12,400 nucleotides of DNA from a virus (Duplodnaviria > Heunggongvirae > Uroviricota > Caudoviricetes): the IMG/VR virus record IMGVR_UViG_2778261689_000004. One strand, written 5' to 3'. The notes below the pieces were generated by a model. The model searched no databases. It saw only the letters and a program-made list of their open reading frames with translations, and was not told where the DNA came from. The translations under genes were made by a program, and so were the position numbers. Every line of letters begins with the position of its first letter. Within the stretch, counting starts at the first letter, position 1. Below, piece after piece: positions 4,012 to 11,398 of the stretch.

Positions 4012-4292
4012 GAGATTGTGGTGCTTTTTGTGGGAGTCATCCACTTACGCACTTTGTTTTGCCATGCCAGCAGTTAGCTTCTGCTGTAAAACTATTCATG
4101 CAGCAAACCTGCACTTCACCACAATGGTTAGCATACTTTTCCTGATTAAGATTTTGCCAAATATGCTAGCCATTGTTTCATGTATTGGACCTCCTTACTT
4201 TTTATTAAAGAGATCCAATATTCACTACTCTGTCCGTATCTCTACTCAGGCATCAGCCTTCTTCGTTATCGTATACAGACGAGCGATGAATT

Positions 4293-4508
4293 TTAATCAG
4301 TAATGATGACATTTGCTGCTGCAGGACCTTTAGCACCACTCTCTATAGAGAAGGTAACCTTTTGACCTTCAAATAAGGTTCGATAATTATCATTCTGAAT
4401 CGCAGAAAAATGCACAAACACATCTTTACTACCATCAACAGGAGAAATAAAGCCGAAACCTTTATCAGCGTTAAACCATTTTACTAAACCAGTCATTTTA
4501 TTTGACAT
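4293..4508 (-). CDS. cspB: Cold-shock protein CspB (CspA family), 71 aa
   Basis: [38 protein letters not shown]...; AGGA ribosome-binding site; 5' UTR contains GCCGAAAGGC (plus-strand reverse complement at 4528-4537), which I recall as the cspA-family upstream box. Confidence 0.95.
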
Positions 4509-4675
4509 TCTACATTCCTTAACTTGAGCCTTTCGGCATAAATGGTTTGCATAACAGAAACGACTTCGTACTTAATTGGAGAGACTCAAAGAAGGAATAA
4601 GTGAATAACACCTGAAATGAGAACTGCTTTAGTAAACTACTTCGTATATCGTCTGTTCTTCAAACCGACGCAATC

Positions 4676-6208: not shown

Positions 6209-6826
6209 TTACGCCAGTACGCCAATTGCCAGCGCGCGATCGATAAAACGAAATATCAGCTCCAGTTGGGAGCCATACTTATCTTCAAATGCCACTGTAT
6301 CCGTATGCAGCTCGTTGTGATGCTTTCTGCACAAAGGCAACACAAAGAGATCATGTGCTTTTGTTCCCATTCCGCCCTGCCCGTGACCAATCAGATGATG
6401 CGGATCGTCGGCTGGCATACCGCAGCAAGCACACGGCTGTGTCTTAACCCAACGTGTGTATTTCTCCTTAACCCAGCGGCGACGTTTAGGCAGCTTCATG
6501 AAAGATTCCGGAGACTCTGGATCAACGGTGATGCTTACCACCGTCTTTTCCTGTGGTGATTTTTGTTGCTGGTGGGCGTAAGGCAACGGTGCAAGATTTT
6601 TTGTGCGTTGTTTCAATATGCTGGTGGCGGTCTGCTCTCCCGGTACGATGTCGCTTTCGCGGTACACCGAGCAGATTTTTTCCGCTGGTAATCCCAGCGA
6701 ACGACGCGATACAGCCTCAGGTAGTGCATCCACCACCTGATTGCAGACCGCCCACCAGGATAATTCAGCCAAAGATAATTCCCGCTCCTGCGTACCGCTT
6801 ATTGCGTGACGGATGACGTCAATCAC
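6209..6826 (-). CDS. ydfU: DUF968-family prophage protein with Cys/His-rich motif (YdfU-like), 205 aa from a GTG start
   Basis: Motif CACCGMPADDPHHLIGHGQGG...LPLCRKHHNELH (zinc-binding/HNH-like). ORF starts at GTG 6824-6826 with an in-frame stop 25 codons upstream (6902-6904); shorter than the K-12 YdfU I recall. Confidence 0.7.
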   Translation of the reverse strand: MIDVIRHAISGTQERELSLAELSWWAVCNQVVDALPEAVSRRSLGLPAEKICSVYRESDIVPGEQTATSILKQRTKNLAPLPYAHQQQKSPQEKTVVSITVDPESPESFMKLPKRRRWVKEKYTRWVKTQPCACCGMPADDPHHLIGHGQGGMGTKAHDLFVLPLCRKHHNELHTDTVAFEDKYGSQLELIFRFIDRALAIGVLA

Positions 6827-6984: not shown

Positions 6985-7052
6985 AAGTGCGGGTGCGTTG
7001 AGGATGCCTGCCACATCAGAGGTGGCGAGGGATTTCTCCCCCGCCGGGTCTC

Positions 7053-7208
7053 TTACTCCTCAGGTTCGTAAGCTGTGAAGACAGCGACCTCCGTCTGGCC
7101 GGTTCGGATTCGTACCTCGCAGAGGTCTTTCCTCGTTACCAGTGCCGTCACTATGACGGTTAAACAGATGACGATCAGGGCGATTAACATCGCCTTTTGC
7201 TGCTTCAT
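7053..7208 (-). CDS. hokD: Hok-family type I toxin HokD (RelF), 51 aa (below the ORF-track cutoff)
   Basis: Hand translation gives MKQQKAMLIALIVICLTVIVTALVTRKDLCEVRIRTGQTEVAVFTAYEPEE; AGGAG ribosome-binding site upstream; immediately downstream of relE. Confidence 0.9.
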   Translation of the reverse strand: MKQQKAMLIALIVICLTVIVTALVTRKDLCEVRIRTGQTEVAVFTAYEPEE

Positions 7209-7279
7209 AGCCTGCTTCTCCTGTCAACGCAAAGCAGAAGTGTCACCTTCGGTGCGAAACAGAGATGTCATGCTTTGGT

Positions 7280-7567
7280 TCAGAGAATGCGTTTGACCGC
7301 CTCGCTATATACTTCCGAGCGTTCTCTTTTCCCAACAGAAATCACGAAAACGACAACTTTCTCGTCTATAACCTGGTATACAAGGCGATAGCCTGAAGAC
7401 CGGAGCTTAATCTTGTAACAATCAGGCATACCACGGAGCTTGTTTGCTTCAATCCGGGGTGACTCAAGTACTTCAACCAGCTTCTTTTTCAACTGTTCAC
7501 GTACCGTCGAGCCCAGCTTTCGCCATTCCTTTAGTGCCCGCTCGTCAAAATCCAGAAAATACGCCAT
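7280..7567 (-). CDS. relE: RelE mRNA-interferase toxin, 95 aa
   Basis: MAYFLDFDERALKEWRKLGSTVREQLKKKL... matches RelE as I recall it; start overlaps the relB stop. Confidence 0.95.
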   Translation of the reverse strand: MAYFLDFDERALKEWRKLGSTVREQLKKKLVEVLESPRIEANKLRGMPDCYKIKLRSSGYRLVYQVIDEKVVVFVISVGKRERSEVYSEAVKRIL

Positions 7568-7806
7568 CAGAGTTCATCCAGCGTCACACGTACTGGCTTA
7601 GGATTACGAAGCCGTTCTTTCACTATCTCCACAAGTTCAGCATCTTCATCACTCAGGAGTGTCTGTTTGAACGGCAAGCGTTCATTGTCAGCGATATACT
7701 CGAGCATGAGACGAAGCGCTTCAGAAGGAGTTACACCCATTTTTTCAAGCGCGGCGTAAGAACGCGCTTTAAGTTCATCGTCAATACGCAGGTTAATGCT
7801 ACCCAT
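7567..7806 (-). CDS. relB: RelB antitoxin, 79 aa
   Basis: MGSINLRIDDELKARSYAALEKMGVTPSEALRLMLEYIAD... matches RelB as I recall it; ATG at 7804-7806. Confidence 0.95.
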   Translation of the reverse strand: MGSINLRIDDELKARSYAALEKMGVTPSEALRLMLEYIADNERLPFKQTLLSDEDAELVEIVKERLRNPKPVRVTLDEL

Positions 7807-7817
7807 GTCTTACACCT

Positions 7818-7870
7818 CTTGTAATTACAAATGTCATTACAAGTATCGCACTACAACATGCTTAGGGCAA
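7818..7870 (-). promoter_or_regulatory. relBE promoter/operator region (relO-like hexad repeats plus candidate -35 TTGCCC / -10 GATACT)
   Basis: Perfect 12-bp palindrome TTGTAATTACAA (7819-7830), and flanking inverted repeats CTTGTAAT (7818-7825) / ATTACAAG (7836-7843), lie 12-37 bp upstream of the relB ATG; candidate -10 at 7842-7847 and -35 at 7865-7870 with a 17-bp spacer. Confidence 0.55.
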
Positions 7871-8136
7871 GTCACGAAGGAAGTCAGAAAGTAGTCGTAA
7901 GAACGGTGATCACTGTCCGCTTTGTGCCAGGAGCAGCCATTGCTAAGTCCATCCTGTATTGTGCAGGTCAGCTCGTTTTTAAAGAGTCCGGCCATCATCT
8001 TACTGGTACAGACACCATATACTTTGTGACGGTCAGGCTACATATGCACAACTCAACTTATTCATCTATTTTTTGCTTTAGCATGTCAGTGTTGCTTTCT
8101 CGTCGGCGGGTGAGCGGTGACCTGACCTGTCGATAA
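7831..8136 (+). CDS. ydfV: Doubtful ORF overlapping the relBE operator (position of K-12 ydfV), 101 aa
   Basis: ATG-initiated ORF with no ribosome-binding site, starting inside the relO palindromes; low-complexity translation. Listed only because an ORF is annotated here in K-12 as I recall. Confidence 0.25.
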   Translation: MSLQVSHYNMLRASHEGSQKVVVRTVITVRFVPGAAIAKSILYCAGQLVFKESGHHLTGTDTIYFVTVRLHMHNSTYSSIFCFSMSVLLSRRRVSGDLTCR

Positions 8137-8288
8137 AGGAACGTAACACGTTTTATGCAACACCCGCATGCGGCAGAAAATTATTGCCGAACGTTTACCC
8201 CTGTCAACAAGCTTTACTTTCTGAGGCGCGCCAGCCCGCGAGGAAAACAATCTGAACATCAAACAATTAATGACACAAGAAATACGAT

Positions 8289-8315
8289 TAAAGATTTTTT
8301 TGTGCATGCCGATAG
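8289..8315 (+). promoter_or_regulatory. Sigma28 (FliA) class 3 flagellar promoter upstream of flxA
   Basis: TAAAGATT-N11-GCCGATAG against the consensus TAAAGTTT-N11-GCCGATAA; followed by AAAGGAG and the flxA ATG at 8339. Confidence 0.7.
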
Positions 8316-8338
8316 TGCTTTTTTAAAAGGAGAAATCT

Positions 8339-8671
8339 ATGTCTGTCACAATTCAGGGAAATACCTCAACCGTTATTTCAAACAACTCCGCCCCGGAAGG
8401 AACATCAGAAATAGCCAAAATCACAAGACAAATTCAGGTGCTGACTGAAAAGCTTGGGAAAATCTCATCGGAAGAGGGGATGACGACACAGCAGAAAAAA
8501 GAAATGGCTGCATTGGTACAGAAGCAAATTGAAAGCCTCTGGGCTCAACTGGAGCAGTTGTTAAGGCAGCAGGCAGAGAAAAAGAATGAAGACGCGACAG
8601 TTCAGCCTGATAAAAAAGAAGAGAAAAAAGACGATACAAATACCGCTGGCACCATTGATATTTACGTCTAA
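8339..8671 (+). CDS. flxA: FlxA (FliA-regulated protein), 110 aa
   Basis: MSVTIQGNTSTVISNNSAPEGTSEIAKITRQIQVLTEKLGK... matches FlxA as I recall it; preceded by a strong ribosome-binding site and the sigma28 promoter. Confidence 0.9.
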   Translation: MSVTIQGNTSTVISNNSAPEGTSEIAKITRQIQVLTEKLGKISSEEGMTTQQKKEMAALVQKQIESLWAQLEQLLRQQAEKKNEDATVQPDKKEEKKDDTNTAGTIDIYV

Positions 8672-8685
8672 GTGACAGCCGTATT

Positions 8686-8708
8686 GTGGCCCTCATCGGG
8701 CCACTTTT
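8686..8708 (+). terminator. Intrinsic terminator downstream of flxA
   Basis: Stem GTGGCCC / GGGCCAC with loop TCATC, followed by TTTTCG, 15 nt after the flxA stop. Confidence 0.55.
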
Positions 8709-8878
8709 CGCCATCAGCCTTTTCTTTAAAGACATATTATCTTTGTATCATTTCTGATAGTTAACATTACAAGATATAAGTAATGGACGCACTCCCAATT
8801 AGTCTATTTAAATCGCCACGAGTTTAACTGACAACCCATGATCAATTATGAATTGCAACTATTTCTGTAGTCACTTTT

Positions 8879-10719
8879 GTGGGGACAGTCCACAAAACTG
8901 CCAACTTCCGCTTCTTGCTCTTAGCGGACATTAGCATAGGCTATTTACCATAACGCCTCATTACGCGCACCGCCCAGACTGACTCAGCGCGTTTCTGGCA
9001 TATCCCCGGTAAAACAAGTAACAAACCACCCGAAAATGAACACCAGAAACGCGACTTAAGAATCTACCCTATGAATGGATATGCACTCAACCGAATCGAT
9101 CTTGGTTTCAATCTTTTTTATCGGGATCAGGCTTCTTTTTAGGTAACTTCGGGGGCTTAACTTGCTGATGACTTTGCGTTCGGCGCGTAAGCCAGGGATG
9201 GTCAGCTTTAGGTTTAACATAGTATTTTGAGCGTAAATCAATACGGGCATTATCCACTCGTTCATGGACACTCTTTTCATCATCCAGTGGTATAGGCTCC
9301 GGGCCATCAACATACTTTTCCCAGCCCAGCGCTTTCCCGTCATACAGAACGTTAATTTCACCGTCAAAGTTCTCGCATACAGTAACAACCGAATGCCTAA
9401 GTCGATATCCCCGGCCCTCACTGCGTACCTGAAACGCACTGCTTTTGTACTGGAAAGTGAGATTTTTAGACAGAACGCGCTTCGCCTGTAGGCTGAAGAT
9501 ATAACCCAGTTCCTCTTCAGAATGGTGCACATCAAGATGAGCATTATCAGTAGTACGAGGCGACGTAGCGAACCGGTTGTTATAGGCTTCAATAAAGGTC
9601 GGCAACCATGCATTTGCTGTTTCAATATCACTGATATTCTGAAGCCGCATTTCTTTGACCAGCCTGTCCTGTAGTGTCTGATTGGCGCGCTCTACCCGCC
9701 CTTTTGCCTGCGGGCTGTTGGCATGGATTGGCTCGATGCCCAGTGTCTTTATCGCACGAGTGAACTGGGTCAGCTCACCTTCCCGCTCTGGGTTATTTAC
9801 CCTGAATATACTGTGTCTATCAGAGTAGAGAGCGAGCGGTACGCCATGATCATTAAGGTAACCCCGGAGGGTTTCCATGTAAGCCCGGGTTGTTTCAGCA
9901 GGCACAAAACGCAACGCCATCAACGCACTGGTGGCATCATCAATGAAAACGATCAGTGTACATCTGGGGCCTCGATTTTCAAACCAGTCATGAGGTGAGC
10001 CATCAATCTGGATCAGTTCACCGTAAGATGGTCGTCGCATGCGGCGTTGATATATACGGGCAATTTTACGACGGCGTTCACGCCATAACCCCTCTTCTAT
10101 CATCCACTTTCTGAGAGTTTCAACGGATAAAGATAAACCGTGTATCTCGCGCAATTTTTCGCACGCAAACGTAGGTCCAAAATCAGCGTAACGGCCTTTG
10201 AGGAGTGAAATTACTGTTGCTCTGAATTCAGTAGAAAAGGAATTATTAGGACGCTTTCCACGTCGGTGGGAAACCAGACCAGAAGGCCCTTCATTTCTAT
10301 ACCGTTGCACCAGACGTTTAACCTGCCGAATAGAAATGCCAATGCGTGCCGCAGCTTGTTCCTGAATAATCTGAAGTCGGTGGAGTTCCTTATGACTCAT
10401 CGTAACAGTCTCTTTGATCATGAAAAATCCCCCAGAGAATTGTCTGGGGACATTTTAGAATGGTTCAAAGGGGACATTACAGCTTGGTGTTAACAATAGC
10501 CTGCTTCTCCGTGCCTTTCGGCACGTAAGAGGCTAACCTACATGTGTCTAGCATGAAATTGGCCTCAGATTAATGTTAAGCGTCTTGCAGGACGCGTAAT
10601 GTTAACTGGGGCTTTTCTCTATCTGCCGTTGGTGTCCATGCCCGAGGCAGATAGCCTCAAGCACCCGCAGTCATTCTACTTAACTAAGATTTCCCCGCAA
10701 ACCGTTTTTGTCCAGCACA
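8879..10719 (-). mobile_element. IS-like element carrying one DDE transposase gene; ends tentative
   Basis: The 437-aa transposase (9108-10421) is flanked by unusually structured non-coding DNA. Tentative termini are TGTGGGGACA at 8879 and the reverse complement TGTG-CT-GGACA ending at 10719; this short imperfect match is all that supports them. No clear target-site duplication found. Confidence 0.3.
9108..10421 (-). CDS. DDE-type transposase (rve integrase core with N-terminal helix-turn-helix; IS481 / ISNCY-IS1202-like), 437 aa
   Basis: N-terminal HTH-like region (IGISIRQVKRLVQRY), candidate catalytic residues in LIQIDGSPHDWFE, LYSDRHSIF and KGRVERANQTL (D, D, E with downstream basic residues), basic C-terminal tail. 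Not one of the K-12 insertion sequences I can recall. Confidence 0.85.
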   Translation of the reverse strand: MIKETVTMSHKELHRLQIIQEQAAARIGISIRQVKRLVQRYRNEGPSGLVSHRRGKRPNNSFSTEFRATVISLLKGRYADFGPTFACEKLREIHGLSLSVETLRKWMIEEGLWRERRRKIARIYQRRMRRPSYGELIQIDGSPHDWFENRGPRCTLIVFIDDATSALMALRFVPAETTRAYMETLRGYLNDHGVPLALYSDRHSIFRVNNPEREGELTQFTRAIKTLGIEPIHANSPQAKGRVERANQTLQDRLVKEMRLQNISDIETANAWLPTFIEAYNNRFATSPRTTDNAHLDVHHSEEELGYIFSLQAKRVLSKNLTFQYKSSAFQVRSEGRGYRLRHSVVTVCENFDGEINVLYDGKALGWEKYVDGPEPIPLDDEKSVHERVDNARIDLRSKYYVKPKADHPWLTRRTQSHQQVKPPKLPKKKPDPDKKD

Positions 10720-10755
10720 GTAAATATCCAACTAAACCAATGGAGTTCGCTGTAT

Positions 10756-10935
10756 TTACCGCCAGTATTCAATGCACATGACCGCCATGAACACCCCTAA
10801 AAAAAGGGCATTTATATATCCAAATATTAATATCAAAACATCAACTTTTTCCATATACCTTGCTGTGAAGATGATGGGCATACATGATGCGAACAACCAG
10901 AACGCAACAAACAAAAACTGCAATGCGTTTTTCAT
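10756..10935 (-). CDS. Small membrane protein with two predicted transmembrane helices, 59 aa
   Basis: ATG at 10933-10935 preceded by a perfect AGGAGG 6 nt upstream; MKNALQFLFVAFWLFASCMPIIFTARYMEKVDVLILIFGYINALFLGVFMAVMCIEYWR has two hydrophobic segments. The track ORF extends to a GTG at 10974 with no ribosome-binding site. Could correspond to the K-12 ydfW/intK-region ORF, unverified. Confidence 0.5.
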   Translation of the reverse strand: MKNALQFLFVAFWLFASCMPIIFTARYMEKVDVLILIFGYINALFLGVFMAVMCIEYWR

Positions 10936-11398
10936 TATTCCTCCTACAATCAATGTGCAATTACATTTAAACACACCTCAATTTGGCCGGACATATAAAT
11001 ATCTAAACCAGAAAAAATCACTTACATAGCGTTACAAACTCTTTAGTCTAAAGGTTCATCGTAAAACATTCCCCATACTTATCAGTCCGTTCCGCGCCAG
11101 GTAGCTCATTGCCTTATCTGGCAACCTGTAATCAGGTTTCCGCTTTTTCAGTTGGCTGGTCGTTTAACCGACATAGTTAATCCATTAATCTAGTTGCCGG
11201 ATGTTGGTGGATTTTCGCGTTTTAGTTGTTCATAAAAGTGCACAGCTTTAACCAGTTCTTCTGATGTAACTGGGACTGGTGAGGCAGTGAATAAGGCCTG
11301 AATTTGATAGTTCGGCCTGTCGTTACAATCCTCTTTTTTCGGTACATATTTCCAGTCACCAGACCACTACTTCCCCTGAAAGTCCGTAACGCCTTTTT

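Follow-up and report, generated by a model that had tools for sequence, protein, structure and literature searches.

What makes the DNA directly upstream of a transposase gene so rich in repeats and palindromes? The question is raised by positions 10446–10654 of the IMG/VR virus record IMGVR_UViG_2778261689_000004 (Caudoviricetes), a stretch of 12,400 nucleotides that we call the window and in which a sequence-only reading had picked out this block as more organized than ordinary intergenic DNA. It had suggested transposase-binding or subterminal sites, a structured leader or small RNA, or an operator array, and a check of the sequence found all the motifs that it listed in place. Our analyses indicate that the block as a whole is a junction, at which the end of a transposon meets the half of a hok/sok locus that was cut from its toxin gene, and that elements with the same ends, as well as their relatives, recur at hok; we give this reading a probability of about 0.9. 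Both components of the junction are of known kinds; what gives it interest is the probable hok-targeting transposon, carrying relBE, that it brings to light. For annotation, the block is best described as the remnant of a hok/sok leader plus a transposon end, and not as a new RNA or operator.

Judged by its sequence, the window is an Escherichia coli Qin-type lambdoid prophage, and 8800–11100 is identical in many complete genomes. The order of genes on the minus strand is rem, hokD, relE and relB, then ydfW and a "partial ISNCY transposase", and then unannotated DNA, with ydfV and flxA lying on the plus strand.

An orphaned hok/sok leader at a transposon end

Homology identifies the minus strand from 10496 to about 10700 as part of a lambdoid-prophage hok/sok locus, with its promoter, its leader, a truncated mok and the antisense gene sok. 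The Rfam model RF01794 ("sok") matches 10666→10495 (−) with 104.1 bits (gathering score 59; E = 2.9e-23) and is covered over positions 1–157 of 157; the model is written in the hok-mRNA sense, beginning at the tac element (GGGUGCUUGAGG) and ending at the hok AUG. When 10422–10760 was used as a BLAST query against 5426 complete E. coli genomes, matches were found in 4332, and those annotated as hokD start at 10496. Within the leader (10496–10666, −), the Rfam alignment and folding place a tac/ucb stem, the Sok-target hairpin, a hairpin with the mok Shine–Dalgarno and start and a GAAA-tetraloop hairpin, and the repeats of the block fall into these structures. The inverted repeat CTATCTGCC / GGCAGATAG (10619–10627 / 10646–10654) is the core of a 20-nt inverted repeat (10608–10627 / 10646–10665) in the tac/ucb stem, and the outer pairs of this stem (G4-C72, C5-G71 and U6-A70) are the ones given for R1 in PMC9841398. 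The two copies of TAATGTTAA (10571–10579 and 10597–10605) and the palindrome GCGTCTTGCAGGACGC between them (10580–10595) make up the Sok-target hairpin, which, read on the opposite strand, is the Sok terminator, and the hairpin CGTGCC-GAAA-GGCACG (10510–10525), which reads CGTGCC-TTTC-GGCACG on the plus strand, stands just 5′ of the hok Shine–Dalgarno.

The leader folds with z = −4.6 and the antisense RNA at 10546–10619 (+) with −30.3 kcal/mol and z = −5.5; covariance analysis of homologous regions, which the sequence-only reading had proposed, revealed compensatory base changes in the first (tac/ucb) stem across eight different leaders. Together with the Rfam match, these results bear out the impression of a structure beyond that of ordinary intergenic DNA. 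The idea of a structured leader or small RNA proves right for these three features but wrong in its ownership: they do not belong to the transposase but form the split hok leader and sok of the prophage. The Rfam scan around the block returned only sok at the E-value threshold, a snoRNA match of 23 bits being dismissed as chance. TAATGTTAA was also considered as the XerD arm of a dif site and rejected, as its copies are direct and not inverted, lie 60–100 bp off the insertion point and are explained by the Sok-target hairpin.

What is left of mok is a frame of 25 codons (10477–10554, −; start ATG at 10554), which is continuous with the mok of intact loci in the alignment and is the sole ORF (open reading frame) of at least 20 amino acids to cross the junction in the mRNA sense; it does not overlap hok but runs into the transposon end and stops there. 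The antisense gene sok (10511–10619, +) would give an RNA from about 10546–10619 with a strong hairpin and a U-rich tail. Its promoter is placed by homology at a −35 of GTGCCT (10511–10516) and a −10 of TAACCT (10534–10539), following the arrangement of R1 sok. The first base of this −35 is changed from T to G in 38 junction-bearing loci, and TTGCCT is found in intact loci and in 14 other junction-bearing ones. The hok promoter is likewise assigned by homology (10673–10700, −), with a −35 of TTGCGG at 10700–10695, a −10 of TAGAAT at 10678–10673 and a start at about 10666; the −10 corresponds in position to TATAAT in the leader of a Phytobacter plasmid (L006, below).

This layout agrees with the published description of hok (PMC9841398). 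The likeness to the hok/sok family takes in the promoter, the tac 5′ element, the tac/ucb stem, the Sok-target hairpin, the mok Shine–Dalgarno and start and a putative antisense sok with its hairpin terminator. The differences are a detached toxin gene, a mok of only 25 codons, a leader that continues into the end of a transposon and a mutated sok −35. The Sok-target hairpin further differs by a 16-nt palindromic extension, absent from the Rfam consensus but present in intact hokD-type prophage loci (L002). The 3′ fold-back element fbi, the pairing partner of tac, is expected downstream of hokD (below 7053) and can no longer share a transcript with tac.

The leader stops at 10495/10496, and the toxin coding sequence is not contiguous with it. 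The annotated hokD (relF; 7053–7208, −) now lies 3.3 kb from its own leader, downstream of relE, and aligns with the intact hokD of L002, in which the coding sequence begins exactly where the homology to the window ends. The alignment of the intact locus with both parts of the window reveals a perfect 15-mer, GGAGAAGCAGGCTAT, on both sides of 7222–10495. One copy (10496–10510, −) spans the hok Shine–Dalgarno through the AT of the start codon; the other (7207–7221, −), read 7221→7207, runs into the hokD ATG at 7208 and gives hokD its Shine–Dalgarno and the AT of its start codon. In many genomes, the two hok halves are contiguous within about 510 bp, representing the empty site. The 3274 bp between the two copies are therefore a transposon that inserted with a 15-bp target-site duplication. 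The insertion set relB-relE directly upstream of hokD and orphaned the hok promoter, leader, mok start and sok.

On the other side of the junction, the 74 bases at 10422–10495 are recognizable by sequence as the transposase-proximal end of a 3274-bp transposon (7222–10495) of the IS1202 family, ISEsa1 type. The homology to intact hok loci ends exactly at the terminal inverted repeat TGTTAACACCAAGCTGTAATGTCCCC (10470–10495, −), whose counterpart at the relE-proximal end is TGTCAACGCAAAGCAGAAGTGTCACC (7222–7247, +). The 26-bp repeats are imperfect, agreeing at 19 of 26 positions, and both have TGT at positions 1–3 and TGTC.CC at 20–26; they have the form described for the IS1202 family, with imperfect inverted repeats of about 24–29 bp, a 5′-TGT start and a conserved block near position 20 (bioRxiv 10.1101/2022.12.17.520857). 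The two GGGGACATT motifs (10446–10454 and 10470–10478) are parts of a 19-nt direct repeat, 79% identical and spaced by 24 bp. The second lies in the terminal repeat and the first in the subterminal copy 24 bp further inside (10446–10464, −), a putative second transposase-binding site, and the relE end mirrors this layout with a second ATGTC motif about 24 bp further in (7265–7269). The suggestion of transposase-binding or subterminal sites may thus be retained for the GGGGACATT pair, and it fails for the other features. A comparison with the termini of related insertion sequences (ISs), also put forward by the sequence-only reading, agrees with this: both motifs are kept in relatives with 78% (L083) and about 69% (L086) transposase identity, as GTAATGTCCC / AAATGTCCCC motifs 24 bp apart, with a different sequence in between.

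Immediately 5′ of the transposase ATG (10421), a scan for terminator-like sites and folding found the hairpin CCCCAGA-CAATTC-TCTGGGG (10429–10450, −), followed by ATTTTT (the two together spanning 10450→10424) and holding the likely ribosome-binding site in its 3′ arm; it is a putative barrier to read-through from outside the element. The link once drawn from the block to a GGGGACA at 8881, across the transposase gene, has to be given up. That motif lies in the hairpin TTTTGTGG-GGACAGT-CCACAAAA (8873–8897; no T-run on either strand), which is at or just past the end of the conserved transposase module and not at an end of the element, and a 7-mer such as GGGGACA is expected about 1.5 times per 12.4 kb on the two strands. 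A second transposon end near 8761 (GTTAACATTACAAG...) or at this hairpin was considered and rejected: the homology between copies ends at 8892–8913 without an inverted repeat, and the element in fact ends at 7222, next to its duplication.

Recurrence at hok and competing explanations

Scans for exact matches to the 26-bp end found it bounding elements in species genomes (one genome per species, giving 16 loci) and in 60 viral contigs. Among these, the break falls at the ATG or no more than about 10 nt from it, and mostly within 1 nt, in at least 10 different hok leaders or alleles; the interrupted leaders end in GGAGAAG-N-GGCYAT or in ATG, and one junction falls 9 nt past the ATG. The duplicated sequences include GGAGAAGCAGGCTAT, GGAGAAGTCAGCTAT, GGAGAAGAAGGCCAT (in two different leaders), GATGTTAGCCATG, GAGAAGTACGCTATG and GGAGAAGAAGCCATG. 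The element on a Phytobacter IncF plasmid (L006) is 12843 bp long and has the same ends and its own perfect 15-bp duplication, GGAGAAGTCAGCTAT; it consists of the transposase, ncrYCBA, chrBA and other genes, and then relB and relE. Its target is a different, R1-like hok locus downstream of psiB-psiA, and its empty site, once reconstructed, aligns in a single piece and with 98.3% identity to intact plasmid hok loci. A 6093-bp element (L009/L019) has a perfect 15-bp duplication, GGAGAAGAAGGCCAT, and a 4487-bp element (L010) a duplication of 13 bp, and in L018, the insertion is in the same 15-mer but in the opposite orientation. Relatives of the transposase recur at the hok position at 92%, 78% and about 69% identity, the last two, with diverged ends, at the same site in other hok alleles.

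Independent events have thus struck one position of a conserved target, and this recurrence at hok points to target-specific transposition. We consider it likely that the ISEsa1 type is a clade of cargo-carrying IS1202-family transposons, "hok hunters", which reach from the transposase end to relBE, make duplications of about 15 bp and home to the hok Shine–Dalgarno and start on plasmids and prophages, severing the resident type I addiction module from its controls and leaving hok behind the type II module of the transposon. Under this explanation, the transposase would bind the paired 19-bp repeats at each end and select the conserved translation-initiation region of hok. Insertion would trim mok to 25 codons and part the toxin gene from its activating leader while keeping a copy of the Shine–Dalgarno; since mok is shortened and hok translation is coupled to that of mok (bioRxiv 10.1101/2025.08.07.668861), the toxin gene would be cut off from activation. 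It would then be transcribed from the relBE promoter; a passage in PMC5120126 cites Gotfredsen & Gerdes 1998 for the co-transcription of relBEF. The orphaned hok promoter probably still yields a short transcript (mok′, 25 codons) into the transposon end, where the hairpin 10450→10424 may terminate or mask read-through because it overlaps the transposase ribosome-binding site. The sok promoter, with its weakened −35, may continue to produce Sok, for which no toxin gene is left to control in cis.

Several points weigh against this picture. Four copies lie outside hok (L007, L013, L022 and L052), so the preference for hok is not absolute, and the flanks of L081 come from two different, mismatched hok alleles, which indicates recombination between copies. 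The targeting is read from natural insertions, and for several of these, the loci having been cut at 8 kb, just one flank is known. Since the pattern scans picked every copy by the exact 26-mer, these copies say nothing on the conservation of the terminal repeat; only L083 and L086 are independent of that choice. Of these two, L086 has kept the hairpin at 10429–10450, and L083 does not clearly have it. A strict sigma-70 consensus scan of 10350–10800 gave zero promoters, and the hok, sok and transposase promoters are therefore assigned by homology alone. Finally, part of the event may already be known, as a passage in PMC6379469 cites Ramisetty & Santhosh 2016 for the integration of relBE into hokD.

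One alternative, taken as the leading idea of the sequence-only reading, is that the entire block belongs to the IS, either as an array of subterminal sites for binding the transposase or as the structured leader of its mRNA. This is favored by the position of the block, which immediately precedes the transposase gene in the sense of the mRNA, and by the two GGGGACATT motifs, which are truly end sequences. From 10496 onward, however, the DNA is homologous to intact hok/sok loci without any transposase, and the junction is also where the Rfam model ends; next to other transposase copies, the DNA found there is different, be it the truncating ISKpn38 in L003 or other hok alleles in L006, L008 and L010. 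As intact hok loci align past 10495 and other copies differ beyond it, we regard this explanation as already refuted and give it hardly any credence. Still less can be said for an operator or terminator array of the phage that serves neighbors such as the 72-amino-acid ORF at 10756–10974. The block is rich in palindromes and lies between genes of a lambdoid prophage, but each palindrome maps to a helix of the hok-leader covariance model with compensatory changes, leaving no residue to explain, and the suggestion of an operator array found no support.

More serious is the possibility that the association with hok is historical, one ancient insertion having been spread by homologous recombination or by hitch-hiking with hok without any target preference. 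The hok loci are mutually homologous, the mixed flanks of L081 demonstrate that copies do recombine, and many of the 60 viral contigs share one Qin-type junction. On the other hand, the duplicated 15-mers differ between loci and are identical within each (GGAGAAGCAGGCTAT, GGAGAAGTCAGCTAT and GGAGAAGAAGGCCAT), the junctions are shifted by at least 1 nt between events and one has the opposite orientation, and the element ends are identical while the leaders differ greatly. Moreover, further hok alleles carry, at this very site, the relatives with 78% and about 69% identity, and for two events, both flanks match one intact allele at 96–98%. Different yet internally matching duplications, shifted junctions, a reversed case and divergent relatives together argue against a single ancestral event spread by recombination, which we consider very unlikely. 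A different question is whether the orphaned leader and sok have been retained as functional, Sok RNA or a leader decoy acting in trans on related hok mRNAs as a form of anti-addiction or immunity. In favor of this, sok has an undamaged and very stable hairpin with its U-rich tail, about 511 complete E. coli genomes have kept the unit along with the transposon, and a genome may have up to nine related hok leaders, about 93% identical. Against this stand the changed sok −35, the complete loss of the unit in K-12 and the presence of ISSen4 inside it in E. coli C, which look like relaxed selection and suggest decay rather than retained function; we find a role in trans improbable, though the least so of the four alternatives.

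relB-relE-hokD, ISEsa1 and the IS1202 family

The insertion bears on a well-studied part of the K-12 chromosome. Window positions 7000–9292 are 100% identical to the relB-relE-hokD (relBEF) region of K-12, including relB, relE, the relE-proximal inverted repeat, the 15-bp repeat and hokD, whereas MG1655 has lost all beyond 9292, that is, most of the transposase, the transposase-proximal end and the hok leader with sok. The window therefore preserves the state before the K-12 deletion, and ydfW of K-12, where the homology ends at 9292, is a fossil of the transposase; in the window, what is annotated as ydfW (9108–9257, −) is simply the 3′ end of the transposase ORF, its final 49 codons. If the elements do home to hok, relBEF and ydfW in K-12 are the fossils of one such event. 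Pedersen and Gerdes reportedly noted in 1999 that hokD had been inactivated by a "major genetic rearrangement". The insertion offers a concrete mechanism for that long-noted rearrangement and for the origin of the relB-relE-hokD operon. In the literature on ISEsa1, IS1202, hok and relE, we found no paper that ties the integration of relBE into hokD to a transposase or to hok targeting, and no description of hok targeting by ISEsa1 or other IS1202 elements.

ISEsa1 itself is listed with a length of 1609 bp, inverted repeats matching at 15/22 and no duplication detected in multiple examples (Harmer & Hall 2023, PMC10132070). Compared by these listed properties and by NCBI naming, the window element resembles ISEsa1 (IS1202 family, formerly ISNCY) in its transposase, 98% identical to proteins that NCBI assigns to the ISEsa1 family, and in the length of the transposase module, about 1610–1620 bp against 1609 bp. 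It differs in that the unit is 3.3–12.8 kb long, with relBE at its end in every case, that its inverted repeats match at 19/26 and that its 15-bp duplications are perfect. The listed length and the missing duplication fit the transposase module alone having been taken for the IS, which suggests that ISEsa1 has been wrongly delimited and would explain the absence of a target duplication.

Within the IS1202 family, target-site duplications fall into classes of 5–6, 15–17 and 24–29 bp (bioRxiv 10.1101/2022.12.17.520857; PMC10132070), and the 15 bp found in the window, L006 and L009/L019 is in keeping with these, L010 having 13 bp. The 15–17-bp class is that of the ISTde1 subgroup, for which no targeting is described (bioRxiv 10.1101/2022.12.17.520857); targeting is described only for the 5–6-bp subgroup at dif-like sites (bioRxiv 10.1101/2022.12.17.520857; PMC10132070). 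The members of that subgroup, ISAjo2/ISAba32, insert 5–6 bp from XerC/D dif-like sites and share with the present elements the transposase family and the repeated, mostly oriented insertion at one conserved sequence of mobile DNA. Here, however, the target is the translation-initiation region of a toxin gene and not a recombination site, the duplication is 15 bp and not 5–6 bp, and the element carries cargo and a type II toxin–antitoxin module. The toxin-gene start region would thus be a second target specificity for the IS1202 family, next to the dif-like sites. A looser likeness, again in the repeated insertion at one conserved sequence, exists to Tn7 at attTn7 and to the "res hunters" of the Tn5053 type; no separate target-selector protein is evident in the element.

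In these insertions, one element carrying a toxin–antitoxin system has repeatedly disabled another such system. On clinical plasmids of Klebsiella and Enterobacter, genes for resistance to nickel and chromate travel on the same element, and if the homing to hok is real, the same vehicle spreads ncr/chr metal resistance on plasmids of these two genera.

Modules of the transposon and other features of the window

The transposase (9108–10421, −; 437 amino acids) matches the NCBIfam model transpos_ISNCY_2 (NF033594) with 456.4 bits against a cut-off of 250, placing it in this DDE transposase family, and contains the Pfam domains HTH_32/29/28 and rve_3. In pairwise alignment, it is the plasmid "IS1202-like element ISEsa1 family transposase" WP_004196353.1 minus nine amino acids, with 98% identity. 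The missing residues, SINRHITQE, are dropped from the N-terminal helix-turn-helix region by a 27-bp in-frame deletion at 10358/10359 (codon 22); most Qin-type copies are 3301 bp long and do not have the deletion. Since nine helix-turn-helix residues are deleted, the window copy is, by its sequence, probably unable to move on its own. PGAP called the rest of the transposase "partial", although the 437-codon ORF is open, and left the block itself unlabelled.

Pairwise comparison of the 3274-, 4487-, 6093- and 12843-bp elements gave the borders of three modules. The conserved transposase module (8903–10495, −) is common to all copies and measures about 1610–1620 bp in undeleted ones; the variable cargo (7935–8902) here consists of most of ydfV and all of flxA and elsewhere of ncr/chr metal-resistance genes or other DNA; and the conserved relBE module of about 715 bp (7222–7934, −) contains the relB promoter region, relB (7567–7806), relE (7280–7567) and the relE-proximal end. 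The last is 95–99% identical in all complete elements, and the RelE protein of the Qin prophage and that of the Phytobacter plasmid element have the same accession. A simple IS would have 1.3–2 kb and a single ORF; the units are 3274 bp long here and 4487–12843 bp elsewhere, always with relBE and cargo, and the element is a cargo-carrying transposon (transporter IS). The 1.6-kb transposase module was rejected as an autonomous IS, as its inner boundary showed neither an inverted repeat nor a duplication and the plasmid copies adjacent to ncrY are the 12.8-kb element, some records of which are truncated by ISKpn38. Similarly rejected was L007 (2575 bp) as a minimal form of transposase and relBE: in this copy, the transposase is in pieces, and other DNA has taken its place.

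The tail of the transposase module, 3′ of the transposase stop, has a perfect 11-bp inverted repeat, CGCGTTTCTGG / CCAGAAACGCG (8988–8998 / 9043–9053), and a TAATGTCCGC motif (8920–8929) that is direct, not inverted, relative to the end repeats. Similar sequences are also present in the 78% relative L083, and the repeats possibly form an internal transposase-binding site. In L083, another type II module, with a toxin of the RelE/ParE family and an antitoxin, directly follows the transposase in the opposite orientation (10360–10882 of that locus); toxin–antitoxin cargo may be a general trait of this transposase clade. Two of the copies outside hok have features of their own. L052 is a 3301-bp element with a flanking repeat of only 6 bp (CGCCTT), and in L022, the Hfq-binding small RNA isrO (Rfam, 58.8 bits) lies at 6628–6741 against the transposase-proximal end and slightly overlaps it.

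Other IS elements have also entered this region. The IS3-like ISSen4 sits at 10622–10629, inside the tac/ucb stem, as seen in L084, in E. coli C and in related strains. Three different hok leaders, those of L009, L011 and L086, are joined to an IS3-family end (...TGTCCAACTTTTTGGGGTCAGTACA) at one and the same point, just 5′ of the mok Shine–Dalgarno (GAGGCC) and equivalent to about 10568 in the window; hok leaders may thus offer a preferred site to this second IS too, a pattern that resembles IS150 at hokA in K-12. Elsewhere in 8800–11100, other strains have IS1, IS903B, ISKpn26 or IS3, with IS1 at 11017–11031 in L085.

Directly upstream of the hok promoter, the 72-amino-acid ORF at 10756–10974 (−) encodes a hydrophobic product and is, by alignment, also conserved beside intact hokD-type loci; neither it nor the small ORFs of the block had a Pfam or NCBIfam match. 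Farther away in the window, Rfam RF01766 (cspA-type thermoregulator) identifies two 5′ untranslated regions, at 1382–1767 (−; 113 bits) and 4277–4669 (−; 159 bits), upstream of the prophage cold-shock genes cspI and cspB.

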